Positions 30,959 to 50,209 of a DNA stretch of 64,000 nucleotides are shown here, in pieces. Made by a program: the position numbers and the translations under genes. The stretch's first letter is position 1. Each line of letters begins with the position of its first letter. Below the pieces are notes generated by a model. The model was given only the letters and a program-made list of their open reading frames with translations, made no database searches and was not told the origin of the DNA. The DNA comes from Candidatus Saccharimonadales bacterium (GTDB lineage Bacteria; Patescibacteriota; Saccharimonadia; Saccharimonadales; UBA4665). The stretch covers positions 5,073 to 69,072 of the forward strand of contig DATIIT010000009.1 in assembly GCA_035479375.1 (NCBI GenBank). The letters run 5' to 3'.

Positions 30959-31060
30959 CTAGCCATATACGGCTAGTTTCGGGCGAAGATGAATAATTGC
31001 TCGCTTTCCGCTTGCGCTTACCGGTATAATCGAAGCAGGAAGCAGTAAGGCAGGTTGGGC

Positions 31061-31888
31061 ATGAAATTTTTATGGCTGAGCAGTTCCCGGGTTGGCGCGC
31101 CATTGGGCGTGGGTATGCTGCTGCTGGCGTTCTTATTCCCGGTTACGGCCGCGGCGGCCTCAGCCATTGCCCAGGGGTTTAAGGCGGGCGGTGACGGAAT
31201 TGTAAGCGGCGCGCTGGTGAGCTTGCAACAAGGCGTGGCCGGCACCGTTGAGCTCAGCACCGCCGCCAACAGTGCCCACTTGGTGGGGGTGGTGGAGCGG
31301 CAATCGCTCATCGACTTTGCCAATGGCGGCACCGTGCAGGTAGTTACCAGTGGCACGACCCCGGTGCTGGTGAGCGACATCAACGGCCTGGTGAAAACGG
31401 GCGATAGGATTACGGCCTCGCCGATTGTGGGTGTGGGCATGAAGGCTACCGAGAGCGCCACCGTGGCCGGCAGCGCCCAGGCCGACATGCAGCTCAGCAC
31501 CGCTGAAACGCGCCAGGTCACCGCCGCCAACGGCAAACAGCACACTGTGCACGTTGGCGCTGTGCCTCTGTTAGTCTCGGCGGCGTACTACCAGCCCAAA
31601 CCTACCCAGAGCAAGTTCGTCCCTAGCGGGCTGCAAACGTTCGCGGCCAACATTGCCGGCCACCAGGTGCCACCGGTGCGGATACTCGTGGCTGGGCTGG
31701 TGGTGGTATTGCTGTTTGTGTCGGTGGCGGTGCTGTTGAATTCGTCGGTGCGCTCCAGCATTATCGCCATTGGGCGTAACCCGCTCAGCGGGCAGTCGGT
31801 GCGCCGGAGTTTATTCGAGGTGGGCGTCACTACAGTAGGGGTGCTGGCCTTTACAGTCATTGCCGTATACCTTATCCTGACGGCCTGA
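31061..31888 (+). CDS. Secreted, C-terminally anchored 'GRNP' membrane protein (cassette 1)
   Basis: Signal peptide (..PVTAAAA); VVTSGTTPVLVSDINGLVKTGDRITASPIVGVGMKA domain; TM hairpin with SIIAIGRNPL loop; paralog of 39475-40320. Confidence 0.75.
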   Translation: MKFLWLSSSRVGAPLGVGMLLLAFLFPVTAAAASAIAQGFKAGGDGIVSGALVSLQQGVAGTVELSTAANSAHLVGVVERQSLIDFANGGTVQVVTSGTTPVLVSDINGLVKTGDRITASPIVGVGMKATESATVAGSAQADMQLSTAETRQVTAANGKQHTVHVGAVPLLVSAAYYQPKPTQSKFVPSGLQTFAANIAGHQVPPVRILVAGLVVVLLFVSVAVLLNSSVRSSIIAIGRNPLSGQSVRRSLFEVGVTTVGVLAFTVIAVYLILTA

Positions 31889-32006
31889 CCGTCCAGGTTG
31901 TCCACAGTTTTACAGCGGGCGCTAAAAGTACTTGCCCCGCTAACCGTAAGCCGCGTAAGATATAAATTACGGGATCAAATACCTAACAACAGAAAAACAA
32001 AAACCC

Positions 32007-35000
32007 GTGCAAGACCAAAACCAACCCACCACCACACCGAGGACTATTGGGGTCGACAGCGGCCCGCTAGTCTCTACTGGATACGACAGCCGGCCAGACC
32101 CGTTTGCTGATACTGAAGCATTGTCTGCGCAATCTTTGGACAGCACTTTTGTGCACGCCGCGCCGCGCCTTACCGTGGCCTCCCGTTTGCTCAAGCGGGT
32201 GGATGTTATTTTGCTGGCGCTGTTAGTTTTGGGCGCGCTAGGACTGGTGTTAAGCACCTTTTTCCATAAGCACCAGCAGCCGGTAAGCAACAGCGTAAGC
32301 ACACAGTTTGGCAACGTGGCCTTGCCGCTCAGCCAGTTTGTTGGCACGGAGGATGGCATCAAGCTGGACGCCGGGAGTGTGGTGGTAAACGGTGCGCTCA
32401 AGCTGAACCAGGGCGTGGTCATAACGCCGTCGGTGCAGCCCAATGCGCCAGTCTCTGGCCAGTTGTATTTTGACCGCAACACCAACCAGTTGGCGTATTT
32501 TAACGGGACGGCCTTTGTGCCGCTAGGAGCCAGTACCCAGGCGGTGCAAACCATTGGCGGCTTGAGCGGGCAGGTTACCTTAGGCGGTGGCTTGAGTGTG
32601 GTGGGCAACCAGCTCGTCTCATCCACGGCCGGTGTTACAGGGGTAGTGGCAGGCACGAATATTAGCGTAACGAACAATAACGGCGTGTATACCGTGAGCA
32701 ACACCGGTGCCGGCACTGGCACAGTGACGAGTGGCGGCGGCACGGCCGGTACACTGCCACTGTTTACCGGTGTGCAAAATGTAGAGAACTCCATTGTGGC
32801 GCAGTCCGGCGGTGCCATAACAGTGGGCGGCAACCTGAATGTCTCTGGGAGCTTGGCGCTGGGCACTGCCTTGGGCGTGGCCAGCGGCGGCACGGGCGCA
32901 GCCACCTTGGCAGCCAACGGTGTGCTGTTGGGTAATGGCGGCGGTGCAGTGTCCTCCCTGGTGGCCGGTGGCGCTGGGCTTTGCTTGGTATCCTCGGGAG
33001 GGGCGCCCACCTGGGCATCATGCTCGGGCGGCGGCGTTACCAGCCTGAACGGCTTGGCTGGCGCACTCACCGTGGCCAACGCAAGCGGCGTGGGCAGCAC
33101 AGTTACAATTAACGACGCAGGCATCGGCACCAAAGGCATCGCCAGTTTTGACGGCACGAACTTTAGCGTTGTTGGCGGGGCGGTGAACACCGTGCAGAAC
33201 ATCAGCACTGGCTCAAGCCCGACATTTGTGGCGGTGAACACAAATAGTATTACGCCGAGCGCCGCGCTCACCGTTGGCGCCAGCGGCCAGACCCTGACGT
33301 TGCAAGGCGGCGCCAGCACCGTGTTCAAAGCCACGGCCGGCGGCAACACTACCACTGTGGACTTCACGAGCCCTACGGCCAACACCACGCTGCACTTCCC
33401 GGCGTCACCGGCCGGGCCATACACTATTTGTACGACGGTGGGGAACTGCGCCGGCTCTGGCGGCGGCGTCACTGGCTCGGGCACCAACAACCAAATCGTC
33501 AAATTTACGTCCAATGGCAGTACGGTTGGTGACTCCAGCTTGTCTGATAGCGGCGGCGCGGTGACTACCAGCGGCGACCTCGTGATCCAGGGCGGCGATG
33601 TGACCGTGGGCGTGTCCAACAGCCAGACTGGGACGGTGAAGTTTGCGCACAGCGGCTCGGCGTTTATCGGTTCACTGGTGCAAGGTGCGCTGAGCGCCGG
33701 CCAGACATACACGCTGCCAAACGCCACTGGCACCATCTGTTTGGACAGCGGCAACTGTTTGGGCGGTGGGGGCGGCGGCGCCAACACGGCGCTGTCTAAT
33801 CTGACGAGTGTGGCCATTAACACCTCGCTGTTGCCCGGCGTCGCCGGCAGCATTAACCTGGGGTCGGGCGGCTTGCCGTTTGGCGACGTCTTCCTGGCTG
33901 GCGCATCGGGCACCCCTGGCACGAATAATTTCCGGCTCACCGGCGCCTCCACGTCTGGTACGCGGGTTATTACGCTGCCCGACGCCGCTGGCACGGTGTG
34001 TTTGCAGTCGGCGGCGGCCTGCGGGTTTGCGGCCAACAGCGGCAACGGCAACTACATCCAGAACCAAAACAGCGCAGACCAAGCGGCGGATTTCCGCATT
34101 AGCGGCACTGGACGGGCAAATACCTCGGTGCTAACGCCGCTGCTGGACACGGCAACGGGCGTTGCCCTGGCACTCGGCACAAATAACGCTACGGCCATTA
34201 ACCTCAACCAAAGCACGGCAATTGCTACGGGCAAGAGCCTAACAGTGGGGCAGGACGTGACGCTGCAGGCGGCAAACTCCAGCATTAGCAACGCACAGAC
34301 GACGACGCACGGCGAGTCGTTTGGCTCTGGCGCCACCACCGCTAATGATGCGGTTGCCTTTGGGTTTAGCGCGGCCGCGCTGGCTAACAGCGTTGCTATC
34401 GGTTCTGGCGCGAGTACCGCCGCCACGTCAGGGATTGCCATTGGTAACGGCGCTACAGCAGCTAACCAGTTTGGCATTGCCTTGGGCCGCGGCGCCACCA
34501 CCACGGCGGCTAACCAGCTGGTGGTCGGCAGCGGCACGGGCGCTATCAGCCAGGTGTTTATCGGCAACGGCTTTAGCAATGCTGCACCCAGCGATGTAAC
34601 AATCCAAGGCACCGGCGGCAGCGGCACCGACGTGGCCGGCGCCAGCCTGAACCTTTCCAGCGGCGTGGGCACCGGCTTAGGCGCTGGCGGCAACATTAAC
34701 TTCAAAGTGGCGACCCCGGCTGGCGGCACCGGCAGCTCGGCCAACGTGGCGCAAACGGTGGCCACTATTAGCGGCACCAACGGCGCTGCGGTCTTCAAGA
34801 ACTTTGTGAATGGTACGGCCGGGTTTGACGTGCAGACGCAAGGTGGCGCATCAATTTTGACCGTTAACAGCAGTACGCCGGGCGTCACCATAAACGGCAC
34901 CGCCACTATCCAGGGCGGCAGCGGCGCTGGCGCGGTCAGCGTCCAGGCGGCGGCGAGCGCCACTATTAGCATTGGCACAGCTAACGCCAACACCATTACC

Positions 35001-36446
35001 GTGGGCAATGCGGCCAGCACCGCGGCCATCACCATTGGCCAGTCCACGGCCAGCAACACTATTAATATTGGCAACGCCACCACGGCCGCGGGCAACATCC
35101 AGACGATCAACATTGGCACGTCGGCCACCAGCACGGGCAAGGCGGTGATTACTATTGGCAACACCAACGATGGCTCATCGCTGGCGCTGCAGGCCGGCAC
35201 CGGCAATGTGACGCTGTCTACCAACTCGGCCACCTCCAGCGTGACGGTCAAGAGCAACACCAACAGCACCGCTGCCTTCCAGATTTTGGACTCCGGCAAT
35301 AGTCCATACCTCACGGCCAACACCACGTCTACCAACCCAGGCATTTACATCTCTGGTACGGCCAGCGGCGGCGGTGGTGGGCGGCTGTTCTTTGGCAACG
35401 TGGGCGACCCTAACACCTTTGTGGGCGAGGACGCCGACGTGGTCACCCCAGACAACGACCGACTGGCGCTCTTTGGCCGCGCCGGCCTGCGCTTCTACAC
35501 CAACACCGCGCCGGGCAGCCTCACGGGCACCATTACCGCCAACGGCAGGTACATCTTCCAGTCGTTAAACGACAGCCAGGGAGGGTTTGAGTACCAGACC
35601 CAGGGTGGCGACGACCTGCTCAACATTTCCACGGCCGCGGTCACCGTCACCATTGGCAAGGGCACTACCAACGACAGCACCGGCGTGCTGCTGGTGCTCG
35701 ACTCCAAAAACACCGCCGGCGACCCCACCGGCATAACTGGCGGCATGTATTACAACAATAGCAGCGAGACCTTCCGCTGCTATACTGGCGCGGCCTGGGC
35801 GGACTGCATGGGTACGCCTAAGCCTAACGCCCGCCGCTGGACGTACATTACCTATCCGGGCTCCGGCACGAGCTTTAACGCCAACGGCGACATTACTGGC
35901 GGCAACATCGCCACATCTGTCCCGGCCACCACGTCGGAGCCAGCCGTGCTCGATTACGCTACCGCCGGCACCACCAACAGCGCCACCAGCCTGGAGGGCA
36001 ACCCCAACTACAATTCTTCGGCCAACCCCACCTACCAAACGTATGCCTCGATTGCCGGCACCACCAACACCCGCATGTGGCTGGGCTTCACCGACCAGTC
36101 CGCGGCTACCATGGCTGCCAGCGCCAACCCGGCTGGCAACTACGCCGCCTTCCGCTACGACACCGGCGCCGGCGACACGGCCATCAAGTGCGTCACTAAA
36201 GACGGCACCACGCAAAACATCACCAACACCTTTACGGCGCCCACTACGGCTGGCCACAAGTACGAGATCGACATTATCCAAGGCACGGAGGTCATCTTTA
36301 AGCTCGACGGGGCAGAGGTTTGCACCCAGTTCACCAACTCGCCAGCGGCCAACACTATGCTGCGCTACGTCAACACCATGACCACGCTCACCAATGCCAT
36401 CAACGACATCCGCGTGGGCTGGGTGTACATAGAGAGCGACAAATAA
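32007..36446 (+). CDS. Giant N-terminally membrane-anchored fibre protein B (1479 aa) with YadA-head-like repeats and lectin-like tip
   Basis: GTG start; TM after LLKRVD; Cys-pair modules (TLPNATGTICLDSGNC); SVAIG/GIAIG/GIALG repeats at ~34311-34570; MYYN..FRCY..W.DC neck then beta-sandwich tip; paralog of 40442-47842. Confidence 0.75.
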   Translation: MQDQNQPTTTPRTIGVDSGPLVSTGYDSRPDPFADTEALSAQSLDSTFVHAAPRLTVASRLLKRVDVILLALLVLGALGLVLSTFFHKHQQPVSNSVSTQFGNVALPLSQFVGTEDGIKLDAGSVVVNGALKLNQGVVITPSVQPNAPVSGQLYFDRNTNQLAYFNGTAFVPLGASTQAVQTIGGLSGQVTLGGGLSVVGNQLVSSTAGVTGVVAGTNISVTNNNGVYTVSNTGAGTGTVTSGGGTAGTLPLFTGVQNVENSIVAQSGGAITVGGNLNVSGSLALGTALGVASGGTGAATLAANGVLLGNGGGAVSSLVAGGAGLCLVSSGGAPTWASCSGGGVTSLNGLAGALTVANASGVGSTVTINDAGIGTKGIASFDGTNFSVVGGAVNTVQNISTGSSPTFVAVNTNSITPSAALTVGASGQTLTLQGGASTVFKATAGGNTTTVDFTSPTANTTLHFPASPAGPYTICTTVGNCAGSGGGVTGSGTNNQIVKFTSNGSTVGDSSLSDSGGAVTTSGDLVIQGGDVTVGVSNSQTGTVKFAHSGSAFIGSLVQGALSAGQTYTLPNATGTICLDSGNCLGGGGGGANTALSNLTSVAINTSLLPGVAGSINLGSGGLPFGDVFLAGASGTPGTNNFRLTGASTSGTRVITLPDAAGTVCLQSAAACGFAANSGNGNYIQNQNSADQAADFRISGTGRANTSVLTPLLDTATGVALALGTNNATAINLNQSTAIATGKSLTVGQDVTLQAANSSISNAQTTTHGESFGSGATTANDAVAFGFSAAALANSVAIGSGASTAATSGIAIGNGATAANQFGIALGRGATTTAANQLVVGSGTGAISQVFIGNGFSNAAPSDVTIQGTGGSGTDVAGASLNLSSGVGTGLGAGGNINFKVATPAGGTGSSANVAQTVATISGTNGAAVFKNFVNGTAGFDVQTQGGASILTVNSSTPGVTINGTATIQGGSGAGAVSVQAAASATISIGTANANTITVGNAASTAAITIGQSTASNTINIGNATTAAGNIQTINIGTSATSTGKAVITIGNTNDGSSLALQAGTGNVTLSTNSATSSVTVKSNTNSTAAFQILDSGNSPYLTANTTSTNPGIYISGTASGGGGGRLFFGNVGDPNTFVGEDADVVTPDNDRLALFGRAGLRFYTNTAPGSLTGTITANGRYIFQSLNDSQGGFEYQTQGGDDLLNISTAAVTVTIGKGTTNDSTGVLLVLDSKNTAGDPTGITGGMYYNNSSETFRCYTGAAWADCMGTPKPNARRWTYITYPGSGTSFNANGDITGGNIATSVPATTSEPAVLDYATAGTTNSATSLEGNPNYNSSANPTYQTYASIAGTTNTRMWLGFTDQSAATMAASANPAGNYAAFRYDTGAGDTAIKCVTKDGTTQNITNTFTAPTTAGHKYEIDIIQGTEVIFKLDGAEVCTQFTNSPAANTMLRYVNTMTTLTNAINDIRVGWVYIESDK

Positions 36447-36501
36447 CCCGGCCGCACATCTCTTTCCCCCTATGCTTTTATCGTATAAGATGGGGGTAAC
36501 C

Positions 36502-36912
36502 ATGGAAACTGCACACATATCTAAATCGCGGCGCGGGCTGGTCATTAGCCTGGTTGTAGGCGGTGTGTTGCTGGTGGCTGGCGCCGCCGGCGCCGGCTTT
36601 TGGCTTGCGCGCCGCAGCAGTACGCCGCCGTCCACTAGCAGCCAGGCGGCGCAAAAGCAAAAAATCCTGCAAGAGGTAGGCGACATGTACTTGCTGCCAG
36701 ACGGTGAAAACCCCACAGTGGCCATCATCCAGGACAAAAGTGCGCTCGGCTCGGAATCTTTTTTTAGGGCGGCCCAAAACGGTGACGTGGTGATCATTTA
36801 TAAGGCTGCCGGCCTGGGGCTTATTTACCGGCAAAGCCTGCACAAGCTCATCAACGTCCAGACGGTGTCGTTTGCTGGCGCCGCCGGTGGGACGGCGCCA
36901 GCCGGTAACTAG
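36502..36912 (+). CDS. Small single-pass membrane protein (conserved CPR-type family)
   Basis: TM RRGLVISLVVGGVLLVAGAAG; LP.GENPTVA...FF..AQNGD..IIY...LIYR motif recalled from CPR genomes; start 36502 or 36490. Confidence 0.65.
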   Translation: METAHISKSRRGLVISLVVGGVLLVAGAAGAGFWLARRSSTPPSTSSQAAQKQKILQEVGDMYLLPDGENPTVAIIQDKSALGSESFFRAAQNGDVVIIYKAAGLGLIYRQSLHKLINVQTVSFAGAAGGTAPAGN

Positions 36913-36996
36913 TATTATCCGGCTAGTTACCCCTTACGTTTTTCCGGTGGCGGCTGGCCGCACTCGGTGGTATACTTTGACCTGAAGAGGGAACTG

Positions 36997-37758
36997 ATGA
37001 AACAAACAATCATTGCGGTCATCAACCAAAAGGGCGGCGTTGGCAAGACAACCACGGCGACCAACTTGGCCGCGCAGCTGGCTGGCAACGGCGCAGCAGT
37101 GTTGCTGGTAGATTTAGACCCCCAGGGCAATGCCACCAGCGGCCTCGGCGTCAACAAAGAGTTGGAGCCCACCACCTACGAGGTGCTGTTTGCCCAGGCT
37201 GGCCTGGACCAAGCAGTGCGTCCGGCAGAGCGCGACGGCCTGTATATTTTGCCGGCCAATGCCAACCTGGCGGCGGCCGAGGTAGAACTGGTATCGCAGC
37301 TGCAGCGCGAATTTGCCCTGCGCCGGGCCCTGGAGCCGGCGGCATACGACTACGTCATCATTGACTGCCCGCCGGCGCTCGGCCTGCTCACTATCAACGC
37401 GCTGAGCGCGGCCACCCACTTGCTCATCCCGGTGCAGTCGGAATATTATGCGCTCGAGGGGCTTGGCCAGCTGCTGGCCACGGTGCAGCGCGTCAAAGAG
37501 GCGCTTAACCCCGGGCTGGACCTGCTGGGCGTGGCGCTCACCATGTACGATAAGCGCACCAGCCTGTCCGAGCAAGTCATGCACGAACTACAGAGCCACT
37601 TCGGGGACAAGCTGTTTAAGACGGTCATCCCGCGCAACGTGCGTTTGGCTGAGGCTCCCAGCTTTGGCAAGACCATTTTTGAGCACGACCGCTGGAGCAA
37701 AGGCGCCCGCGCCTACAAAAATCTGGCCAAGGAGGTAGCAAAACGTGTCCATGGGTAA
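36997..37758 (+). CDS. parA: Chromosome partitioning ATPase ParA/Soj
   Basis: NQKGGVGKTT, DLDPQGNAT, IIDCPPALG, PVQSEYYALEG, PRNVRLAEAPSFG. Confidence 0.96.
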   Translation: MKQTIIAVINQKGGVGKTTTATNLAAQLAGNGAAVLLVDLDPQGNATSGLGVNKELEPTTYEVLFAQAGLDQAVRPAERDGLYILPANANLAAAEVELVSQLQREFALRRALEPAAYDYVIIDCPPALGLLTINALSAATHLLIPVQSEYYALEGLGQLLATVQRVKEALNPGLDLLGVALTMYDKRTSLSEQVMHELQSHFGDKLFKTVIPRNVRLAEAPSFGKTIFEHDRWSKGARAYKNLAKEVAKRVHG

Positions 37759-38608
37759 AACTGGCCTCGGCCGCGGTTTTGACGCATTAATCCCCAAGAG
37801 CGTGGACGCTGCCGCGCTGTTTGACGACCCTGGCCGCATCCAAAAAATCGCCCTGGGCGACATCGTGCCCAACACCGACCAGCCACGCACTACCTTTGAC
37901 AACGACGCGCTCGTCGGCCTGGCCGAGTCCATCAAGCAGCACGGCATTATCCAGCCGCTGGTGGTGACGCCGCACGGCGCCGGCAAGTACAGCATTGTGG
38001 CCGGCGAGCGCCGGTGGCGCGCGGCGCACATTGCCAAGCTGGACAAAGTCCCGGCCGTGGTGCGCACCACCAAAGAGCTGGAGCGGCTGGAGATTGCCAT
38101 TGTAGAAAACGTGCAGCGGGTGGATTTGTCGCCGTTGGAGCAGGCCGTGTCTATCGAGCGCCTGCATCAGCAGTTCAGCATGACGTACGAGGCGATCGCC
38201 AAGCGGCTGGGCAAGGCCAGCTCCACGGTAAACAACATCGTGCGGTTGTTGCAGCTGCCGGAGGCCGCGCGCGCTGCCCTCGAAGCGCAAAAATTGAGCG
38301 AGGGCCACGCCCGCGCCATCCTCGCCCTCAAAGACTCGGCCGCGCACCAAGCCGAATTACTGGCGAGCATCTTGCGGCACGGGTGGTCTGTGCGCCAAGC
38401 TGAGCAGTTCGTTACCTCTGTGAAAGATGGTTTTAAGGAGAAGGCCGCCACCAAGGCGCGCATGAGCAGCGAGACGCCGGCCACCAAACTCCTGGGCAAA
38501 CGCCTGGGGGCGCCGGTGCACATCCGCCGTACCGCTAAAGGCGGGAAGCTGGAAATCGCTTTTACCAGTGACGATGAGCTCGACAACATCCTGGCTAGTC
38601 TAGGCTAG
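37751..38608 (+). CDS. parB: Chromosome partitioning protein ParB/Spo0J
   Basis: GLGRGFDAL, QPR, GIIQPL, AGERRWRAA, ENVQR.DL, HTH, GHARA. Confidence 0.96.
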   Translation: MGKTGLGRGFDALIPKSVDAAALFDDPGRIQKIALGDIVPNTDQPRTTFDNDALVGLAESIKQHGIIQPLVVTPHGAGKYSIVAGERRWRAAHIAKLDKVPAVVRTTKELERLEIAIVENVQRVDLSPLEQAVSIERLHQQFSMTYEAIAKRLGKASSTVNNIVRLLQLPEAARAALEAQKLSEGHARAILALKDSAAHQAELLASILRHGWSVRQAEQFVTSVKDGFKEKAATKARMSSETPATKLLGKRLGAPVHIRRTAKGGKLEIAFTSDDELDNILASLG

Positions 38609-38652
38609 ATCCCCTAGGCAGATGTCTGGGGGTGCAGCTCGAAGCCGAGCGC

Positions 38653-39369
38653 CTAGAAGCGCTTGGCGTCGCCAATGGGCAAGACGCGCACGGCGAGCTT
38701 GCCGATAATTTTGTTGGCGTCCACCGGCCCAAAGAGCCGCGAGTCCAGCGAGTTGCCGCGGTTGTCGCCCATCACAAAGACGTGGCCGGCGGTGATTGTC
38801 CACTCGCCGTCAACACCGGTAGTGGGGATGACTTTTCCGTAGGGGAGTGTGGCGTCTGGGCGGAAACCATTGGGGTACTTGGCGTTGTACACCGTTACCA
38901 CGCCGCCGCTGACCACCACTTTGTCCCCGGGTAAACCAATAACGCGCTTAATGAGTTGCTTTTCCGGGTCCTGGCCGAACTGGCCAAGGCGCTCATCGGT
39001 GAAAACAACGACGTCACCCCGGTTTGGGATGTAGGCGTGGTGGGTGATTTTTGCCCACGTGCGGCCGAGCTTCCACACAATGAGGCGGTCGTTGTTGTGC
39101 AGCGTGGTTTCCATGCTGGGCCCGTCCACTTGGTAGGACTGGAACACGAACATGGTCAGCAACACTGCGATAACCGGCGCAATAATAAGCACCAGCACGG
39201 TAGAAAGGATACTGTGCCAGTTATCGCCATTTTTGCTGCGTTTGGTGGGAGGTGTGCTAGCCGCCGGGCGCGGCGGGGTTATGGGCGCGACAGTATGCGG
39301 CGCGCCGGAAAGTGGCTGTTGCATAGGTGCAGCCGGCCGGGGCTGCTGCGTGTTTGGCGAGTCATTCAT
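38653..39369 (-). CDS. lepB: Signal peptidase I
   Basis: One TM, catalytic Ser in VDGPSMETTL, Lys in LIKRVIGLPGD, GDNRGNSLDSR; ATG 39369 chosen (upstream part of the track ORF overlaps the next gene). Confidence 0.93.
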   Translation of the reverse strand: MNDSPNTQQPRPAAPMQQPLSGAPHTVAPITPPRPAASTPPTKRSKNGDNWHSILSTVLVLIIAPVIAVLLTMFVFQSYQVDGPSMETTLHNNDRLIVWKLGRTWAKITHHAYIPNRGDVVVFTDERLGQFGQDPEKQLIKRVIGLPGDKVVVSGGVVTVYNAKYPNGFRPDATLPYGKVIPTTGVDGEWTITAGHVFVMGDNRGNSLDSRLFGPVDANKIIGKLAVRVLPIGDAKRF

Positions 39370-39474
39370 ACAAAAGGTAACTATAGCGCAAATTACCTGT
39401 TGGTGCACGGAAATACTCATTGGGCGGTTCCGGCATCTGGGGTATAATCGTAAGCATAACAACAGTAGGGCTCT

Positions 39475-40320
39475 ATGCACATGTCGCTTCCACGGCAAAG
39501 ACGTTCTCCAAAAGCGAAGTACATCAGTTTGGGTGTGGCGGCGTTCACACTCATTATTTGTGTGTCTTCGTTGAGCGCCCAAGGGGTCTCTTCTATTGCG
39601 CAGGGTTTCCGGACCAGTGACGCCGGGGTTGTCTCTGGCGCGCTGGTGAGCCTGAAAGAAGGCGTGGCAAACACGGTTGAGCTGGGTACGCCGGACAATT
39701 CCCAAAACCTTATCGGCGTTGCCGGCAGCAAGTCACTCATTGAGCTGTCGAGCGGCACAGGCAGCGTACAGGTGGTCACCAACGGGACTACGCAGGCGTT
39801 GGTGTCGGACATCAACGGCGATGTGAAGACTGGCGACCGCGTCACGGCCTCGCCAATTGCCGGCGTGGGCATGAAAGCCACGAGCAGCGGTATCGTTGTG
39901 GGCAGCGCCCAGGCTAATTTGAGTAGTGCAACCACTAGCACCCAAACGGTCACGAATAAAAGAGGCAAACAGGTGACGGTAAAGATCGGCACTATCCCGG
40001 TGCAGGTAGACAAGGTGTTCTACCAGGCGCCCACGGACACGGTGTCATTTTTGCCCCCGGTGCTGTCTGATTTTGCCAACAGCGTTGCCGGGCACCAAGT
40101 TTCCCCGGTACGCGTTGTGGCGGCGGCGCTGCTTATTTCGTTGCTGTTTGTGGCTGTAACAATTTTGCTGTATTCGTCGGTGCGGTCCAGCATTATTTCG
40201 ATTGGCCGCAACCCGTTAAGTGAGCAGGCTGTGCATAAGAGCCTCTTGGAAGTAGGACTGACCGTGGTGGGCGTGCTGGTGTTTACCGTTATTGTGGTGT
40301 ATTTGATCCTCACCACGTAG
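39475..40320 (+). CDS. Secreted, C-terminally anchored 'GRNP' membrane protein (cassette 2)
   Basis: Paralog of 31061-31888: SSIAQGF, VVSGALVSL, LVSDINGDVKTGDRVTASPIAGVGMKA, SIISIGRNPL. Confidence 0.75.
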   Translation: MHMSLPRQRRSPKAKYISLGVAAFTLIICVSSLSAQGVSSIAQGFRTSDAGVVSGALVSLKEGVANTVELGTPDNSQNLIGVAGSKSLIELSSGTGSVQVVTNGTTQALVSDINGDVKTGDRVTASPIAGVGMKATSSGIVVGSAQANLSSATTSTQTVTNKRGKQVTVKIGTIPVQVDKVFYQAPTDTVSFLPPVLSDFANSVAGHQVSPVRVVAAALLISLLFVAVTILLYSSVRSSIISIGRNPLSEQAVHKSLLEVGLTVVGVLVFTVIVVYLILTT

Positions 40321-40441
40321 CGTAAAGTTTTCCACAGAAATACGCCTATCTTGTAGTAAAAAGTACATATACCTACAAGCATAAGCAGCGTAAGATATAT
40401 GCAGGGAATACTCTCGAAAGGGAGTCACAAAAAAACAAATC

Positions 40442-43400
40442 GTGGACCAAAACCAAAATACAAACACGAATGTTGGGCCTATTAGTGGAGGGACGGATCA
40501 GCCGGGGACCCTAGACTATGGCGTTGCTGCTGGCGTGGCCGACCCCGAGGCGCTCTCTTTGGAGCCAGTCTCTGCCACGTTGCCCGATGAAGCAGCGCGC
40601 GCCGCAAAGCGCACCAACGTTGCTGTCCGCCTGTTAAAGCGGGCTGACGTGCTGCTTGTCCTGCTGTTAATTGCGGGCATGGTGGGTCTTATAGTGGCCA
40701 ACGTGCGCCACAAGGCGCACAACAAGGGCGTGGCCAGTATCACAGACCAGTACAACACCGTTACCCTGCCATTGGCTGGGTATGTGGCAAACGCCCAAGG
40801 CGTGAACTTTGGCAGCAGCAGCGTGGTCATCAACGGCGCGCTGAAGGTTAACGACGGATTGGTGGTCACACCTTCTGTGCAGCCCAATGCGCCCACGGCC
40901 GGCCAGCTGTACTTCGACCAAAACACCAACCAGATGGCGTACTACAACGGCAAGTCGTTTGTGCCGCTCGTTTCGCAAGGGGCAGTGGTGCAGAGTGTGG
41001 GCGGCGCCAGTGGGCAGCTGACCCTTGGTAACGGTTTGAGTGTCACGGGCAACCAGCTCAACGTGGCCTTCCCGTCGCAGGCGGCCAGCGTGACGTCTTT
41101 GGGTGGGCAGAGCGGGGCCGTTTCCCTAGGCAACGGCCTGACGCTGGTGGGTGGCGCACTGCAAAATAGCGGCGCCTTGAGCATCACGGCCGGCAACAAC
41201 ATCTCGGTCACCAATGATGGCAAGGGCAATTACACCATTAACAACACTGGTGCTGGCACTGGCACGGTAACGAGCCCGGGTGGCACGTCCGGGCAGTTTG
41301 CGCTGTTTGACGGCGCGCAGGACATCGTTGGCTCGCTGTTGAGCCAGAGCGGCACCACTATCACCATCACCGGCGACCTCAACGTGGTTACCGGCGGCCT
41401 CAGCTTGGGCAATGCGCTTACCGTGCCCAACGGCGGCACTGGCGCTACGTCGCTGGCCTCGAACGGGGTAGTAGTGAGTAACGGCACCGCGGCATTTACC
41501 GCTGTAACCGGCGGGAGCCCTGGGCTTTGTTTGCTGTCTACGGCGGGGGCACCGGCCTTTGGCGCCTGCCCGGGCAACGCCGGCGTGACCACGCTCAACG
41601 GCTTGAGCGGTGTGTTGGCCATTGCGAACGCCAGCGGCGCCGGCAGCACTATAACAATCGACGATGCCACCACGGCCGGCGGCAAGGGCATTGCCAGCTT
41701 CAACAACACGAACTTTACCGCGGCTGGCGGTGTGGTGAACACCATCCAGGACATTAGCACCACCGCGGCCACGACGTTTGGGCGGCTGACGCTGAGCTCA
41801 AACCAAGCAACCAACCCGATGCTGCTGGTAAACAACACCAACGGCGGCGCCTCTGGAAACCTGCTCGATTTGCAGCTTGGCGGAGTGAGTAAATTTAGTG
41901 TTCAACCCGGCGGAAACATATCTGCAACAGGGACGATTAACGGCCAGACAATCTCTAACGTGGCTAACTTTACAGGCAGCCTAGGGGTTTCCGGCAACAC
42001 CACACTCACCGGCACATTGGCGGTGAACGGGGGCAGTATTGGCTCTAGCGGCGCGTTAAGCATCAGCCCCACGGGCACGCTTACCGCAGGCACCACCGGC
42101 CAAACGCTGACGCTGCAGGGCAATGGCAGCACCACATTGGCCGCTACTAGTGGCGGCTTTACCACGACGCTGAGCTTCCAGGCGCCAACGGCCAATGTGA
42201 CGTACCGTCTGCCCACAGCCGCCGCCAACACCTACGACATCTGTACCACGGCTGGCAACTGTACGGGTACCGGCGGCGGGGTGACGACCCCTGGCGGCAC
42301 AAACAACAAGCTATCGAAGTTTACTGGCGCGCAAACGCTGGGCGACTCCAGCATTTCCGACACCGGCGTGCTGGTGACCACGTCGGCCAACATTGCCATC
42401 CAGGGCGGCACGGCAACGGTAGGTGTGGCCAACACGCAAACCGGCTCGCTGACGCTGGCCTACGGCTCGGCCAACTTTAGCGGTACGGTTACCCAGGGCG
42501 TACTCACCAACAACCGCACCTATACCTTGCCAGACGCCAGCGGCACGGTGTGTTTGAGCAGCGGCAACTGTTTGGGTGGGGGCAGTGGCGGCGCCAACAC
42601 GGCGCTGTCTAACCTGACGAGCGTGGCTATTAACACTTCGCTCTTGCCGGGCAGCACGAGCATCGACCTCGGTTCGGCGGCAGCGCCGTTCCGCAACCTA
42701 TATATTGCGGGCAGCTCGGCGTCGCCAGGGACAAATAACTTCCAGATCACTGGTTCGGCCACCCAGGCACGCACGATTACTATCCCCGACGCCACGGGCA
42801 CAATTTGTTTGAACAACAGCACCAACTGTGGCTTCTTAACTGGCACGGGCACGGCGTTTGTACAAAACGGCAACACGCTGGGAGCGGCGGCGTTTATGGG
42901 CACGAGTGACAACTTTGCCCTCAATCTGGTCACCAACAATATAGCCCGCCTAACGCTGGCTAACACCGGCGGTGCGACGTTTAGCGGCAACGTGGCCATT
43001 AACGGCAGCACGCTGAGCTCGGCCGCAGCCCTTAACATTACGCCGAGCGGCACGCTTACAGTGGGCGCCTCGGCCCAAACCCTGACCCTGCAAGGCGATG
43101 GCAGCACCACCCTAAGCGCCACCGGCGGCGGCTTTACCACTACCGTGGGCTTCACCGGCTCGCCAACTGGCGCGGTGACGTACAACTTCGACCGCAGCGC
43201 TGCGCCCAACACATACACCATTTGTACGACAGCCGGCAACTGTGTGGGTGGCGGCGGCGGGGTGACAACGTCCGGCGGCAGCACCAACAAGGTGGCCAAA
43301 TTCAGCGGCAGCCAGACCTTGGCCGACTCCAGCCTCACAGACAACGGCACGACGGTGACCACCACGGGCAACCTGGTGGTGCAGGGCGGCAGCGCCACAG

Positions 43401-46400
43401 TTGGTGTGGCCAACAGCCAGACTGGCATTTTGTCGCTGGCCTACGGCTCGGCCAACTTTAGCGGCAGCCTGACGCAGGGCACGTTAACCGGCAACCAGAC
43501 CTACACGCTGCCAGACGCTACCGGAACCATCTGTTTGAGCAGCGGCAACTGTTTGGGTGGCGGTGGAGGCGGGGGCGCCAACGCGGCGCTGTCCAACTTG
43601 TCTAGCGTGGCTATTAACACCTCGCTGCTGCCGGGTACCACCACGATTGACCTGGGCTCGTCCAGTGCGCCGTTCCGCAACTTATATATTGCGGGCAGCT
43701 CGGGCACGCCTGGCACCAACAACTTCCAGATTACCGGCACGGCCACCAGCCCGCGCACGATCACGCTCCCCGACGCCACCGGCACGGTGTGTCTGAACAG
43801 CTCTGCGTCTTGTGGCTTTGCCACGGGCAGCGGCTCGGCCTTTGTGCAGAGCGGCAACAGCTTTGGCGCCACCGGCGTGCTTGGCACCAACGACAACAAC
43901 GGGCTTAATATCCGCACCAATGGCAACACGGCCTTGGGGCTGAGCGCGGCTGGCGACGCCACGTTTGCTGGCAATGTGACGATCCAGGGCACCACGCTGA
44001 GCTCCAGTGGCGCGCTGAGCATTACGCCCGGCTCCAGCCTGACGGTGGGCGCTACTACCCAGACGCTGACGCTGCAGGGCAACGCCAGTACCACGCTAAC
44101 GGCCACCGGCGGCGGCTTTACCACCACCGTGGGCTTCACCGGCTCGCCCACGGCATCGGTGGCCTACAACTTCGACCGCACGGCCACTGGCGGCCCGTAC
44201 GCCATCTGTACTACGGCCGGCAACTGTACCGGCACCGGCGGCGGCGTGACCACGCTGGGCGGGTCAACCGGGACGATTGCGGTCTTCACTGGTTCGCAGG
44301 CCATTGGCAACTCACTGCTGAGCCAGAGCGGCGGCGTGGTGACGGTGGCCGGCGGGCTCAACCTCACCAGCGGCAACACGTACCAGATTAACAACACGCA
44401 GATCTCGTCGGCTAACTTAAGCAACGACAGCAACCTGGCCAAACTGAGCGCCTCGCAAACCTTTAGCGGCGCCACGGTGACCTTTAAGAACGCCAGTGTG
44501 GACACCACCAACGCCTTTAATATCCAGAACGCTGGCGGCAGCCGTTTATTTACGGCCGACACCACTAACGGCCAGATTATCCTGGGTACCTCCAGTACGC
44601 TGGACGGCAAACTGGTGTTCAACAACGTGAGTAACACGAACACCGCCACGATTGTGCCCGGTACGCCCACGGGCCCACGCACGATCACGCTGCCAGACTC
44701 TACCGGCACCATCTGTTTGGACAGCGGCAACTGTGCTGGTGCGGGCTCCACGCTGCAGACGGCGTACAACTTCTCGGTGGGCGGCACCACGCCAAAGATT
44801 AAGCTCAACAGTACGCTGAACGGCGTGGACATCCAGGACGCGGACACCACGATTGGCGCCAACCTGTTTAACGTGCGCGCCAGCAATGGCGCAGGCCTGG
44901 GCAGTGTGCTGTTTGGCGTAGGCAACACCGGCCAGGCAACACTGCAGAATAGCGCCAACTCCACCACCGCGCTGCGTTTGCTGACGCAGGGCGGCACCAC
45001 GGTGCTCACCGGCGACACCACCAACGGCAAGGTCATTTTAGGCCAGGGCGGCACGTTGGACGGCAAACTGGTATTTAGCAACGCCACCAACGCTAACCTG
45101 GTGACGGTGAGCAGCGCGGCAGTCACCAACGCGCGCACGGTAACACTGCCGGATTCAAGCGGCACGGTGTGTTTGGACAGCGGCAACTGTTCTGGCTCCG
45201 GCAGCACCAACACGCTGCAGGCGGCCTATAACGCTGGTAACACTATTTCTACGAACGGCAACGACATCGCCTTTACGGTTAACAGCAGCCAGAACTTTAC
45301 GGTGACCACGGCGGCTACCGCTACGGGCGGGTCGGTGTTCTCGTTGGCGGATGGCAGCAACGCCACGCCGCCCGGCCAGCTCATTTTGGTGCGCAACAAC
45401 GACATCAACCAGCCGCTGGGCAAGGGCATTGCGGTGACCTCGGCCGGCGGCGGCATTAGTACGGCGCTGGATGCCTCGGGCAGCAATATTACTAACGCGT
45501 TGGCGATTGGCGCCAACGCCATCTCCGGCACCAACTTTAGCGTGAACGGCAGTGGCGCGGTGACCGCTGTGGGCGTGAACTCGGGCAGCGGCCTGTTGCA
45601 GGGCGCTGGCGGCCTGACTGCCACCGGCGCGGTGAGCCTCAACACCACCGGCACCGGCAATACCAGCATTGGGAACGGCACGGGCACGCTGGCGCTGACA
45701 TCTGCCGCGCTTAACGTGACGACTTTGGGGGCGGTAAGCGGCGTGACCACGCTGGCGACATCGGGGATTATTACCGCCGGATCACTGGGCGCGGCCAACA
45801 CCACAACGCTGTTGTGCCGCAATAGCACCAACCAGATCGCCACTTGCGCTGGCACGGGTGCTGGCGTGGCCTTTATCCAGGGCGGCAACAGCTTTGGCGT
45901 GGCTGGCGACCTTGGCACTAACGACGGTTTTGAGCTCAACCTGCGCACCAACAACGCCACGCGCATCACCTTGAGCACCACCGGCGACTTCACCTGGGCG
46001 GCCAGCAGCGCTGGCAACTTCGACCAGTCGAGCAGCACCGGGACGTTTAAGACCGGCAGCGGCAACGTGTCGCTCAACGGTAGTACGACGGTGGCGGCTA
46101 CCAAGACGTTAACGGTCACCAGCGGGCTCACCAGCCTTACGGGCAACACTAGCGGCGACGCGCTTAACGTTTCTAACTCGAGCTCTACGGGCAACATCGC
46201 AGTCTTTAGCGACGGCGCTACAGCAGTGGCCACGTGGGCGAACGGCGGCTCGGTGCTGTTCCAGAACCAAACCGACTCGGCCACGGCCTTTCGCATCCAA
46301 GACACGGGCAGCGGCACGCTGCTGACTGCCAACACCGCCACGCGCACCAGCGGCGTGGCCGGCAACACGGTTAAGATTGGCGACTCCACCGGCACAGACA

Positions 46401-48466: not shown

Positions 48467-50209
48467 ATGCATGAGTTCAGAAAACAAACAGGGCGCGGGC
48501 AGCGCCAAGCTATCGATGGCTTTTTGGGCAGCGCCCCAGGTAAATCGCGCATTGCCGCCCAGCCTCCCCAAGGGCATCGCGCGCGGCTCGATGGCCTCCG
48601 GCCGTCTCTGCGCCAGGTAAGCGATTTCCGCCGCCCCGAAGGCTTGCACCCAGTACAGCCTACCGGTAGCCGCGCCCGGCCACTTGGCGCACCCTTGAAG
48701 CAAGCCGCTCCTGTGCAGGGCCAGGCTGCTACGCCGGCGTCCAGCCAACAGGGCTCGCTGCTGCACATGTCGCTTCCCAGCGGCAGCATGCTCGGCGGCA
48801 GCACCAAAGAGCGCAAACTGTCCCGCAAAGAAAAGCGCCAGGCCCGTGCTAAAAAAGGCGGCAAATGGTACACATTCCGTAAGTGGAGCTTGCGCAGCGG
48901 GCTCGTGGCTGTCGCCCTTGTTTTGGTGGTAGGTGGCTTTTTGGGTATCAAAACGCTGCACCAGCTGCACAAAGTCTTGAAGGGCGGCGGCACTGCCGCG
49001 GCACTGCAAGCCAACGTTAAGCCACAGCTTTTAAAGGGCGAGGGCGACGGCCGCATAAATTTCTTGCTTCTGGGGCGCGGCGGCGACGGCCACGACGGGC
49101 CAGACCTCACTGATACTATCTTGGTGGCTAGCATCGACCCTTTGCATAAGACAGCAGCCTTGGTGAGCATCCCGCGCGACCTGTGGGTTACCGGGCCAAG
49201 CGGCGGCGCAGGGAAGATTAACGCCATTTACGCCAACGCCAAATATGCTGCCCTGGCGCGCAGCCCCAAAGACGCTAGCGGAGCGGACACTGCCGGCGAA
49301 GTGGCCATCGCCCAAGAGGTCACCACCGTGCTCGGTATCCCCATCCACTATCATGTGCTCATGGATTTCCAGGCCTTTAAAGAAGCGGTGGACGCTGTGG
49401 GCGGCGTGGATGTGAACGTGCCCGAAGACCTCATTGACCCGACCATGGCCTGGGAAAATGGCTGGAACGCCACGCTGGCCAAGAAGGGCCTGGACCACAT
49501 GGGCGGCTTCCAGGCGCTGGAGTATGTGCGCTCCCGCCACACCTCGGCCCGCGGCGACTTTGACCGCACCGAGCGCCAGCGCCTGCTCATAGAGGCGCTC
49601 AGCCAAAAAGTGCTGTCCGCCGGCACCTACACCAACCCGCTTAAGATTTCGCAGCTGCTCAGCGCCTTTGGCAACCATGTGTCTACCGACCTCAGCGTCA
49701 ACGACTCGCTGCGGCTGGCCGGCATCTTAAAAGACGTGCACGGGCAGGCCATCCAATCTGTTGGCTTGGCCGACCCGCCCAACAATTTTGTGCACACCGG
49801 TGACATTGGCAGCGCTTCGGTGGTGCTGCCCACAGCCGGCCAAGACAATTACACTGCTATCCAGAACTACGTCCGCAACACCCTAAAAGACCCGTACATC
49901 GCCCAAGAGGCCGCCGCCGTAGAAGTGTTGAACGGCACGAGCACCCCGGGCTTGGCCAGCACCACCGGCGACAAGCTCAAATCCTACGGCTATAACGTTG
50001 TCAAAGTAGATAGCGCGCCCACTTCCAATTATGCGCAGACCACCCTCGTTGACCTCACGGGCGGCAAAAAGCCGTACACCAAAAATTACCTGCAAAAGCG
50101 CTTCAACGCCAAGCTGGCCACCAAGCTGCCAGACGCCACAATCCAAGCAACCGGCGCCGATTTTGTGGTAATCTTAGGGCAGGATGCGACCACTAATAGC
50201 CAAAATTAA
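48467..50209 (+). CDS. LCP (LytR-CpsA-Psr) family transferase with C-terminal LytR_C domain
   Basis: One TM; NFLLLG, TDTILV, SIPRDLWV, KINA.Y, YVRSRH, DFDR.ERQR; VEVLNGT..PGLA C-terminal domain. Confidence 0.92.
   Translation: MHEFRKQTGRGQRQAIDGFLGSAPGKSRIAAQPPQGHRARLDGLRPSLRQVSDFRRPEGLHPVQPTGSRARPLGAPLKQAAPVQGQAATPASSQQGSLLHMSLPSGSMLGGSTKERKLSRKEKRQARAKKGGKWYTFRKWSLRSGLVAVALVLVVGGFLGIKTLHQLHKVLKGGGTAAALQANVKPQLLKGEGDGRINFLLLGRGGDGHDGPDLTDTILVASIDPLHKTAALVSIPRDLWVTGPSGGAGKINAIYANAKYAALARSPKDASGADTAGEVAIAQEVTTVLGIPIHYHVLMDFQAFKEAVDAVGGVDVNVPEDLIDPTMAWENGWNATLAKKGLDHMGGFQALEYVRSRHTSARGDFDRTERQRLLIEALSQKVLSAGTYTNPLKISQLLSAFGNHVSTDLSVNDSLRLAGILKDVHGQAIQSVGLADPPNNFVHTGDIGSASVVLPTAGQDNYTAIQNYVRNTLKDPYIAQEAAAVEVLNGTSTPGLASTTGDKLKSYGYNVVKVDSAPTSNYAQTTLVDLTGGKKPYTKNYLQKRFNAKLATKLPDATIQATGADFVVILGQDATTNSQN

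Follow-up and report, generated by a model that had tools for sequence, protein, structure and literature searches.

Giant 'leg' proteins are the surface partners of the F1-like X0 ATPase in Mycoplasma mobile. Of the mycoplasma F1-like X0 ATPases, Type 2 is the gliding motor of M. mobile, while Type 3 is needed by the MIB-MIP antibody-cleavage system (PMC3369863, PMC12994834). The genome analysed here, from a member of the Saccharimonadales (CPR), shares with these mycoplasmas a reduced genome, dependence on a host and an extra alpha/beta/gamma/epsilon set beside the genuine F1Fo, and in both cases the extra set comes without an a subunit and without an ion-carrying c subunit. The mycoplasma enzymes are functionally tied to cell-surface proteins, a trait that the Saccharibacterial system probably shares. 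It differs from the description in PMC3369863 in that its operon retains b, delta and an apparently c-derived hairpin. This hairpin belongs to membrane proteins that we refer to as GRNP proteins; the 3-TM and 12-TM X0 proteins of mycoplasmas are unrelated to them, and no GRNP-type subunit has been described there. The NCBIfam models for MSC_0618/0619/0622 and MMOB1660/1670 scored below their cut-offs and below the ordinary atpA/atpD models. Membership in the Type 2 or Type 3 mycoplasma lineage was rejected on these specific models and on the different membrane partner.

Four PF00006 loci were found in the genome, corresponding to two operons. One is the complete canonical atpBEFHAGDC operon; the other is separate from it and has the order c-like, b, delta, alpha, gamma, beta, epsilon, with recognisable b-like and delta-like genes and with neither an a subunit nor a canonical c subunit. 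Its c-subunit slot is filled by GRNP-B (G000:C1:24269-25066), the third and more distant paralogue of two proteins encoded in the window, i.e. the whole stretch of 64,000 nucleotides that was analysed. The alternative F1 operon lies on a different contig from these two window genes. Such an Fo-less F1-like ATPase is widespread in Saccharimonadales.

The window is part of a Saccharimonadales chromosome that carries ParAB, IleRS and RNR; its context is cellular and not that of a phage. The region has an even base composition, and envelope genes are common in the neighbourhood (LCP ligase, HtrA, Kelch giant). The two window proteins, GRNP-A1 and GRNP-A2, are true paralogues with 58% identity over 262 residues (E = 8e-83). 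GRNP-A1 is a divergent in-genus duplicate inside the fibre-linked (A) clade, and GRNP-A2 is the orthologue of a ParAB-adjacent copy kept across the genus. The initial annotation had described two ORFs, each with a signal peptide, a shared motif and two C-terminal helices joined by a GRNP loop, and each directly followed by a giant gene. All of this was recovered: both ORFs are real (Table 1), both proteins begin with a hydrophobic, signal-peptide-like segment, the 36-residue motif is present in both, and the giant genes follow after gaps of 118 nt (GRNP-A1) and 121 nt (GRNP-A2). For GRNP-A1, AF2 placed the two hairpin helices at residues 205-239 and 241-274 (pLDDT 90).

Table 1. Features of the GRNP and giant fibre locus, as positions within the window.
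Feature	Position	Strand	Remarks
GGTATAATCG box	31023..31032	+	29 nt before GRNP-A1 start
GGTATAATCG, sole other window copy	39441-39450		25 nt before GRNP-A2 start
GRNP-A1 (P0001, 275 aa)	31061..31888	+	signal-peptide-like segment aa ~10-35, ectodomain ~33-180, short helix 189-199, hairpin 205-274
GRNP-A1 ectodomain	31157..31630	+	predicted phage cement / gp12-autochaperone-like beta fold (AF2, Foldseek)
Motif VVT..GMKA, GRNP-A1	31340-31447		36 residues
GRNP loop of GRNP-A1	31772..31783	+	predicted cytoplasmic; family conservation
SL[F/L]EVG, GRNP-A1	31808-31825		
GCGTAAGATATA box	31953..31964	+	43 nt before giant 1 start
GCGTAAGATATA, sole other copy	40388-40399		43 nt before giant 2 start
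Giant fibre 1 (1479 aa)	32007..36446	+	cytoplasmic tail, one TM helix, juxtamembrane module, Gly/Thr/Val-rich repeats
Small single-TM protein (146 aa)	36472..36912	+	after giant 1; counterpart follows GRNP-giant pair in genus G066
GRNP-A2 (P0002, 281 aa)	39475..40320	+	architecture as GRNP-A1
Motif VVT..GMKA, GRNP-A2	39772-39879		36 residues
GRNP loop of GRNP-A2	40204..40215	+	motif location
SL[F/L]EVG, GRNP-A2	40240-40257		
Giant fibre 2 (2466 aa)	40442..47842	+	giant 1 paralogue; N-terminal anchor and juxtamembrane module shared

Modelled alone with AF2, the GRNP-A1 ectodomain reached a pLDDT of 92.3 and a pTM of 0.85. When the PDB was searched with this ectodomain-only model by Foldseek, the matches with a probability >= 0.9 were solely phage decoration, cement or head-fibre-base proteins (BB1, Pam3, XM1, FCWL1, T1, TW1 and the phi29 gp8.5 base) or the C-terminal autochaperone of phi29 gp12. 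The cement proteins were matched at a probability of 1.0 with TM up to 0.6; the fold match to gp12-C was weaker (3gqh_A, E = 8e-3, probability 1.0, TM 0.49; 3suc, TMq 0.53). In BFVD, the best E-value was 2e-8, a 'DUF2190 domain-containing protein' was matched at TMt 0.74, and 'preneck appendage' proteins also appeared. At the sequence level, PF23982 (XM1 gp53) weakly matched 27 of the 79 members of our family sample (best E = 3e-6) and PF09956 (Phage_cement_2, formerly DUF2190) matched three (best E = 0.013), with neither model matching P0001 or P0002 themselves at E <= 1. Peptidase_G2 (PF11962) gave no match above noise (one of the 79 members at E = 0.026), and S74 was absent from the Pfam matches and from the Foldseek PDB and BFVD lists. 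A DUF2190-type decoration fold, as had been proposed earlier, was thus borne out at the fold level; the accompanying idea of an S74/G2 chaperone resemblance stood for G2, also at the fold level, and found no match for S74. The models suggest that the ectodomain adopts a phage capsid cement / gp12-autochaperone fold. Phage cement and decoration proteins (PF09956, PF23982) share this fold, whereas the GRNP proteins are cellular and membrane-anchored, with no capsid genes in their context. The same fold is shared with phi29 gp12-C (MEROPS G2 / PF11962 IMC domain), and giants of relatives carry a domain homologous to the GRNP ectodomain near their C-terminus, as would be expected of an intramolecular chaperone. 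In the GRNP proteins, unlike in gp12, the domain comes from a gene of its own, is joined to a membrane hairpin and gives no sign of autocleavage.

The hairpin superposed on F-ATPase c subunits (Foldseek, TMt 0.77-0.83, rmsd 1.6-1.8 A, 25% identity). It has in common with subunit c (PF00137) two helices, an equal length, an R-N-P loop and both ends outside, a topology indicated by the signal peptide, which puts the N-terminal domain outside, and by basic residues flanking the loop. In genuine c-rings, this polar loop docks gamma/epsilon. Within the family, R and P of the loop are conserved in 79/79, G in 78/79 and N in 77/79 members, with R, N and P conserved in both subfamilies, and a GRNPE loop was present in 30/30 Saccharimonadales atpE genes examined. 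The atpE of the same genome reads AAGRNPEA compared to SIGRNPLS in the GRNP protein, and the tail after the loop Pro comprises 30-35 aa in atpE and 34 aa in the GRNP protein. The sole PDB profile match of the GRNP protein was a c subunit with the loop AIGRNPE, and hhalign of the hairpin against atpE gave P = 1e-5 (reversed control 0.14) at 82% probability over just 18 loop columns. The first position of an F-type operon is occupied by GRNP-B and other B-type copies and by the A-type copies of G057 and G058; the window genes instead precede giants. The resemblance to c subunits is stronger than initially claimed: the loop equals that of the lineage's own atpE, the hairpin superposes, and the c slot of an F-type ATPase operon is taken by a paralogue.

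Unlike subunit c, the GRNP proteins have no partner a subunit and bear an exported N-terminal extension of ~200 residues. They also lack the ion-binding carboxylate: D/E occurred at +15 to +22 after the Pro in 0/79 members, compared to +17/+18 in 30/30 atpE. The 'conserved Glu' of SL[F/L]EVG noted earlier lies 12 residues past the loop Pro and does not correspond to this functional carboxylate, nor is it conserved (Q in 28, E in 13, R in 7 and D in 7 of 79 members). PF00137 matched none of the three paralogues of this genome at E <= 10, and one relative reached 16.6 bits against a cut-off of 24 bits. As PF00137 is blind to the hairpin and the similarity to atpE is confined to the 18 loop columns, descent from subunit c rests on several weak lines combined; together, these suggest that the hairpin descends from subunit c of the ATP synthase of the lineage itself, with loss of the ion-binding carboxylate. 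With this carboxylate lost and no a subunit in the operon, the hairpin cannot act as an ion turbine.

Giant fibre 1, for which no Pfam match was found, has a conserved juxtamembrane module that reads NGALK.N.G..TPSVQPNAP..GQLYFD.NTNQ.AY.NG..FVPL. The GGTATAATCG box upstream of each GRNP gene is probably a -10 element; the GCGTAAGATATA box recurs at an identical distance upstream of both giants. Homologues of the GRNP ectodomain sit near the C-termini of giants in relatives, and both window giants lack such a cis copy. However, the upstream GRNP gene and a C-terminal domain copy within the giant itself occur together in at least four genera (G033, G051, G066, G075), so that the earlier notion of GRNP as a stand-in for a missing cis chaperone was not upheld.

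We then compared distribution and gene order across relatives. In Saccharimonadales-type genomes, the GRNP family makes up more than 1300 clusters at a 50% identity level; it falls into two subfamilies, A (fibre-linked) and B (F1-operon). Among 61 genera, 48 had both a GRNP protein and the alternative gamma subunit, two had the F1 only, none had GRNP only and 11 had neither (Fisher p = 2e-10). In two genomes with the alternative F1, G025 (99% completeness) and G040, GRNP was not detected, so that it may not be strictly required for the F1. Several genomes have GRNP and yet no PF00137 match (e.g., G064, G076 and G079). In the sister genera G057 and G058, one strand carries GRNP, b, delta, alpha, gamma, beta, epsilon and a giant; these GRNPs nest within the A clade of the window proteins, and the giant shares the N-terminal module of the window giants (E = 5e-43 and 3e-23). 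The GRNP-giant cassette lies tail-to-tail with an extra F1 operon in G034 and G081, while in G039, G033, G031 and G066 the F1 operon is without a GRNP gene and the genome's sole GRNP precedes a giant. Across 41 relatives, a GRNP gene was directly upstream of 31 of the 39 ORFs bearing the giant N-terminal module, and two more of these ORFs were the second giant of a tandem. The cassette adjoins ParAB in conserved synteny across the genus and beyond.

Given this linkage of GRNP, F1 and giant genes, the window proteins are best read as fibre-dedicated subunits of the Fo-less F1-like ATPase. We consider it reasonably probable that they are linked to the fibres and paralogous to the membrane subunit of this second ATPase. 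The signal peptide would export the protein, leaving a beta domain of ~150 residues outside, followed by a hairpin that keeps c-subunit length and topology and the GRNP loop, predicted to be cytoplasmic. The hairpins may oligomerise and dock the alternative F1, and the A-type copies of the window could do likewise. The ectodomains may engage the N-anchored giant fibre encoded downstream, most likely via its membrane-proximal module, and cytoplasmic ATP hydrolysis could in this way be coupled to fibre assembly, anchoring or movement outside. Whether by rotation, anchoring or assembly, any such coupling must act in trans, since no F1 genes lie next to the two window genes. A possible, albeit doubtful, extension is a mechanical drive, in which the alternative F1 would turn or torque a ring of carboxylate-free hairpins whose crown of ectodomains would grip the fibre base. 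Against the main reading itself, one ectodomain of ~17 kDa per hairpin would be sterically awkward in a tight c-type ring, and the cement-like fold is trimeric in phages, no obvious fit with 8-15 subunits.

Alternatively, as the initial annotation had it, the GRNP proteins might be membrane-tethered trimerisation chaperones acting in trans, with the hairpin as a mere tether and no ATPase involved. The ectodomain would then serve as a template on which the trimeric fibre folds outside the cell, a role played in cis by the C-terminal autochaperone in phi29 gp12. The gp12 autochaperone matches (3gqh_A, 3suc), the 'preneck appendage' matches in BFVD, the tight pairing of GRNP and giant genes and the position of the homologous domains in relatives, near the giant C-termini where intramolecular chaperones sit, would all fit. 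We nevertheless regard this as unlikely, as cis and trans copies coexist in the four genera named above without replacement, capsid cement proteins were the stronger fold matches with Peptidase_G2/S74 sequence matches not above noise, and neither the conservation of the cytoplasmic RNP loop nor the c-slot position in F1 operons would be explained. A passive envelope protein, structural or wall-binding and anchored by its hairpin, has a similarly small chance of being correct. Its synteny would then reflect envelope co-regulation, in line with the envelope-gene-rich surroundings, the promoter-like box of its own before each gene and the window genes' want of a direct F1 link. This would leave unexplained the identity of the loop to the F1-docking loop of c subunits, and is countered by the near-perfect co-occurrence with the alternative F1 and by the alternation of GRNP between the F1-operon head and the pre-giant position, with both bridged in two genera.

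Loop motif and hairpin length are as in the genome's own atpE and could also speak for a variant c subunit that enters the canonical F1Fo c-ring as regulator or plug. This is highly improbable, since the carboxylate is missing from every member sampled, GRNP genes never occur in the canonical atp operon, and the family tracks the second F1 and not atpE, as illustrated by the genomes without a PF00137 match. Finally, a prophage remnant made up of a capsid cement gene and tail fibre genes would account for the phage-type ectodomain fold and the tail-fibre-like texture of the giants. It deserves next to no weight in view of the conserved chromosomal synteny beside ParAB, the absence of capsid, portal and terminase genes, the even base composition and the size of the family in Saccharimonadales-type genomes.

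Attachment to a bacterial host is the way of life of Saccharibacteria and other Patescibacteria. To our knowledge, little is known beyond type IV pili about how they grip, probe and feed on their hosts, and a rotary ATPase re-purposed to transmit energy across the membrane is so far known from mycoplasmas only, with unrelated membrane parts. Reading the window proteins as fibre-linked subunits of the second ATPase joins three 'dark' gene sets, i.e. the giant fibres, the GRNP membrane proteins and the second F1 ATPase, in one candidate system and provides a testable hypothesis for such a re-purposed rotary ATPase. It would also illustrate the recruitment of a fold of phage capsid cement proteins or tailspike chaperones to a cellular membrane complex. 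If the mechanical drive were true, cytoplasmic ATP could rotate or tension the fibres, or power their ATP-dependent folding and assembly, on the outside of the cell, where there is no ATP. The GRNP paralogues, each encoded beside its own fibre, would then be exchangeable adaptors through which a single motor serves different fibres. Gene content and gene order thus suggest that Saccharibacteria possess an undescribed ATP-powered machine at their cell surface.

The initial annotation had reported two paralogous ORFs, each lying before a giant gene, and this was borne out with respect to coordinates, motif and loop. GRNP-A1 (275 aa) and GRNP-A2 (281 aa) are 58% identical (E = 8e-83), and both possess an N-terminal signal-peptide-like hydrophobic segment, the 36-residue motif, two long C-terminal helices, the loop SII[A/S]IGRNPLS and the stretch SL[F/L]EVG. 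The giant ORFs start 118 nt (1479 aa) and 121 nt (2466 aa) downstream of GRNP-A1 and GRNP-A2, respectively. Each GRNP gene and each giant gene is preceded by a -10-like box of its own, and no intrinsic terminator was found in the gaps between GRNP and giant genes. The two types of box each occur in exactly two copies within the 64 kb, which suggests that the promoters are separate and were duplicated, and that their leaders are very short.

Positions of the GRNP cassettes and associated features
Feature	Position	Remark
GRNP-A1 (P0001)	31061-31888 (+)	fibre-linked subfamily
Giant 1	32007-36446	candidate surface fibre gene
GRNP-A2 (P0002)	39475-40320 (+)	fibre-linked subfamily
Giant 2	40442-47842	candidate surface fibre gene
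GRNP-B	24269-25066, contig C1	third paralogue, F1-operon subfamily
GGTATAATCG box	31023-31032, 39441-39450	25-29 nt before GRNP starts
GCGTAAGATATA box	31953-31964, 40388-40399	43 nt before each giant start
ParA/ParB	36967-38608	neighbour in the window
LCP-family ligase (580 aa; LytR_cpsA_psr + LytR_C), 255-aa unknown protein, HtrA-like protease	48467-52319	3' of giant 2
146-aa single-TM protein	36472-36912	3' of giant 1 (cassette 1)
Two further giant envelope proteins	25393-30021, 18754-25314	upstream of the cassettes

The genome containing the window spans 1.19 Mb and is 96% complete, and homologues carry the name 'Candidatus Saccharimonadales'. The surroundings of the cassettes are those of a cellular chromosome, with ParA/ParB, IleRS, class II RNR, LCP ligase and HtrA, and a phage or prophage origin was rejected. 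The small single-TM protein behind giant 1 has a counterpart 3' of a giant in genus G066 (locus L109, 7927-8364) and may thus belong to the cassette as well. The order of a giant followed by proteins of ~560-600 aa and ~255 aa was seen again in six loci of relatives (L039, L042, L044, L051, L063 and L065), a hint at glycosylation or wall attachment of the fibres. One of the two upstream giants (1542 aa) is TM-anchored with many Kelch repeats, the other (2186 aa) is secreted and was matched by no Pfam model; the GRNP ectodomain and the giant N-terminal module are absent from both. The apparent public gene call for GRNP-A2 (P0003, 252 aa; 100% identity, 90% coverage) starts ~29 codons after the start used here, excluding 39475-39561, by which the signal peptide would be lost. 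The longer form is the one supported by the family alignments.

Searches with both proteins against Pfam, NCBIfam and PHROGs gave nothing significant. The family nevertheless comprises 1354 cluster representatives at 50% identity (E <= 1e-3), with >1300 matches in the 90% collection. When 79 diverse members were aligned, G76, G98, G109 and S120 of the ectodomain and R239 and P241 of the loop proved invariant, and G238, N240 and L242 nearly so. A third, distant paralogue is encoded on contig C1 of the window's genome. Phylogenetically, operon-type (GRNP-B) and fibre-type (GRNP-A) proteins are split with a support of 100/99; GRNP-A2 is the orthologue of the genus's ParAB-adjacent copy, and GRNP-A1 is a divergent duplicate that arose within the genus.

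In the AlphaFold2 model of the full-length protein (pLDDT 90.4), a beta-rich ectodomain is connected through a short helix to a helical hairpin of 70 residues; the ectodomain alone reached a pLDDT of 92.3 and a pTM of 0.85. Foldseek with the full model returned two kinds of matches: cement or decoration proteins of phage capsids for the ectodomain, and F-ATPase c subunits for the hairpin. With the ectodomain alone, PDB matches of probability >= 0.9 were phage proteins without exception. The PDB matches comprised the BB1, FCWL1 and T1 decoration proteins, the Pam3 cement protein, the XM1 minor capsid protein, TW1 gp56 (TM 0.57-0.60), the phi29 head-fibre base (TMt 0.60), the C-terminal autochaperone of phi29 gp12 (3gqh_A, E = 8e-3; also 3suc) and, in part, lambda gpD and SHP. 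Matches in BFVD reached E = 2e-8 and included a DUF2190 protein (TMt 0.74) as well as 'preneck appendage' proteins and the N-terminal domains of long phage proteins. Among the 79 members, weak Pfam matches were obtained to PF23982 (XM1 gp53; 27/79) and PF09956 (Phage_cement_2, formerly DUF2190; 3/79). The resemblance to S74/G2 chaperones and DUF2190-type folds that had been proposed in the initial annotation thus held at the fold level for DUF2190 and G2, whereas that to S74, which never appeared with any of the 79 members, was not supported. A single Peptidase_G2 sequence match among these members (E = 0.026) was dismissed as noise.

The proposed likeness of the hairpin to ATP synthase subunit c was retained for topology, length, loop and structure, but not for helix sequence, PF00137 or the ion-binding carboxylate. 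The hairpin superimposes on the Chloroflexus c subunit 9itt_I with a TMt of 0.83 and an rmsd of 1.6 A at 25% identity, and the sole sequence-profile match in the PDB was a c subunit with the loop AIGRNPE (E = 0.59). The atpE of the window's genome itself carries the loop AAGRNPEA, and a sample of atpE genes from the whole order had GRNPE in 30/30 cases. After the loop proline, GRNP proteins extend for 34 aa compared to 30-35 aa in atpE. A search with PF00137 did not recognize the hairpin, and hhalign aligned it to atpE over 18 loop columns only (probability 82%, P = 1e-5; reversed control 0.14), so that homology of the helices to atpE is unproven. Descent of the hairpin from c thus draws its support from topology and length, from the lineage-specific loop and from where the gene lies, and not from helix sequence. 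All 30 atpE proteins have a carboxylate at +17/+18, while none of the 79 family members has one at +15 to +22. The glutamate of SL[F/L]EVG had been regarded as conserved; as an ion site it was rejected, as it lies at +12, where the family mostly has other residues (Q in 28, E in 13, R in 7 and D in 7 members), and it is missing from the operon-type subfamily. The RNP loop of F-ATPases lies on the cytoplasmic side, where it binds gamma/epsilon.

A survey of 20 family loci from relatives yielded two conserved gene contexts. In context A, a giant ORF (615-3694 aa) comes after GRNP, and ParAB is often adjacent, as it is at 39475. In context B, a class-V aminotransferase and GRNP precede genes for proteins of ~206, ~236, ~533, ~286, ~435 and ~108 aa. 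The first of the six in the window's genome is b-like, with a TM helix at its N-terminus (NCBIfam subunit B, E = 1e-4), and the second is delta-like (E = 2e-6); they are succeeded by alpha, gamma, beta, which has the Walker A motif GGAGVGKT, and epsilon (PF02823, E = 4e-13). A complete canonical operon, atpI-B-E-F-H-A-G-D-C, is located on a different contig of this genome. Together with the gene order of context B, this places the third paralogue in the c slot of a second, a-less F-type ATPase, whose catalytic motifs are intact. Without an a subunit and the carboxylate, ion-driven rotation is impossible. A gene convergent to this alternative F1 operon encodes a TM-anchored protein of 347 aa that includes a bactofilin-like beta-helix region (L004 2645-3688, contig C1).

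Across 61 genera of the order, GRNP and the alternative gamma (E < 1e-50) occurred together in 48, F1 alone in two, GRNP alone in none, and neither in 11 (Fisher p = 2e-10); one apparent exception, genome G059, was due to a contig break and was resolved before counting. In G057 and G058, the genes are arranged on one strand as GRNP, b, delta, alpha, gamma, beta, epsilon and giant. The N-terminal modules of these giants match those of the window's giants (E = 5e-43 and 3e-23), and the GRNPs fall within the A clade, adjoining the window's genus. G034 and G081 carry an additional b-delta-alpha-gamma-beta-epsilon operon, itself without a GRNP gene, in tail-to-tail arrangement with a GRNP-A-giant cassette. 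Four further genomes (G039, G033, G031 and G066) have an aminotransferase-b-delta-alpha-gamma-beta-epsilon operon without GRNP, and their sole GRNP precedes a giant; the F1 operon of G074 likewise has no GRNP gene. The juxtamembrane module of the window's giants was found in 39 ORFs in 41 related genomes, of which 31 directly follow a GRNP gene and at least two others come second in a tandem of giants. GRNP hence alternates between the head of the F1 operon and the position before a giant, sometimes bridging both, a pattern expected of a single functional system.

Some genomes possess two alternative F1 operons and thus three F1 sets in total (L096 and L097 in G057, L099/L046 in G034, L095 in G081). 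The gamma subunits of the fibre-associated sets share only 37-46% identity with the aminotransferase-linked type, which suggests that the alternative F1 comprises two lineages. Behind the sole GRNP of G074, a stretch of ~6 kb (L108 3000-9130, contig C1; 44% GC) contains no ORF >195 aa and may be an rRNA operon.

The giants partnered with A-type GRNPs measure 615 to 4845 aa and have only their N-terminal part in common, where a cytoplasmic tail, itself variable, is joined by an LKR-TM anchor and the module NG.L..N.G...TPS.QP..P..GQLYYD..TNQL.YYNG..FVPL. As sharing is limited to this part, a membrane-proximal partner would most likely make contact at the module. It had been proposed that the GRNP proteins could act in trans as membrane-tethered trimerization or export platforms for fibres lacking a C-terminal chaperone in cis. 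The window's fibres and the other neighbours indeed contain no copy of the GRNP ectodomain that the family profile detects, at HMM sensitivity. However, giants of several genera bear one or two ectodomain homologues at the C-terminus and still have an upstream GRNP gene, and the argument of a trans replacement is therefore unsupported. The GRNP proteins may still have a chaperone-like role as such. The giants concerned (L063, L064, L065, L051 and L109 in G007, G030, G009, G033 and G066; contigs C4, C4, C95, C1 and C8) measure 1670-4845 aa, and their one or two tandem homologues lie at a distance of 26-196 aa from the C-terminus.

Among described systems, the F1-like X0 ATPases of mycoplasmas come closest, which are likewise extra, channel-less F1 sets with surface functions (PMC3369863, PMC12994834). 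In contrast to the system described here, the X0 membrane proteins are unrelated to GRNP, and b and delta are missing. The saccharibacterial alternative F1 subunits score under the mycoplasma-specific NCBIfam models. A literature search for 'F1-like' with Saccharibacteria or Patescibacteria found no paper, and we could not find a described counterpart of a c-type hairpin fused to a phage cement fold as a membrane subunit. The Tn-seq tables of the genetically tractable Saccharibacterium Southlakia epibionticum list one ATP synthase set and no second; this species appears to have the canonical operon alone, without the alternative F1 system.

We infer that GRNP proteins may couple the alternative F1 to the fibres. 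Two genomes have an alternative F1 without GRNP, and in the window's genome any coupling of GRNP-A to F1 must occur in trans. A bulky ectodomain on each protomer fits a tight ring poorly, and the phage proteins related to the ectodomain are trimeric. The analysis shows an exported cement/autochaperone-like domain on an ion-blind, putatively c-derived hairpin with an invariant RNP loop, an F1 operon without an a subunit, and a three-way linkage of both with the giant fibres in the genomes. In the proposed mechanism, GRNP proteins would oligomerize, dock the alternative F1 and join it to the base of the fibre, and ATP hydrolysis would then work on the fibre in its assembly, anchoring, tensioning or rotation.
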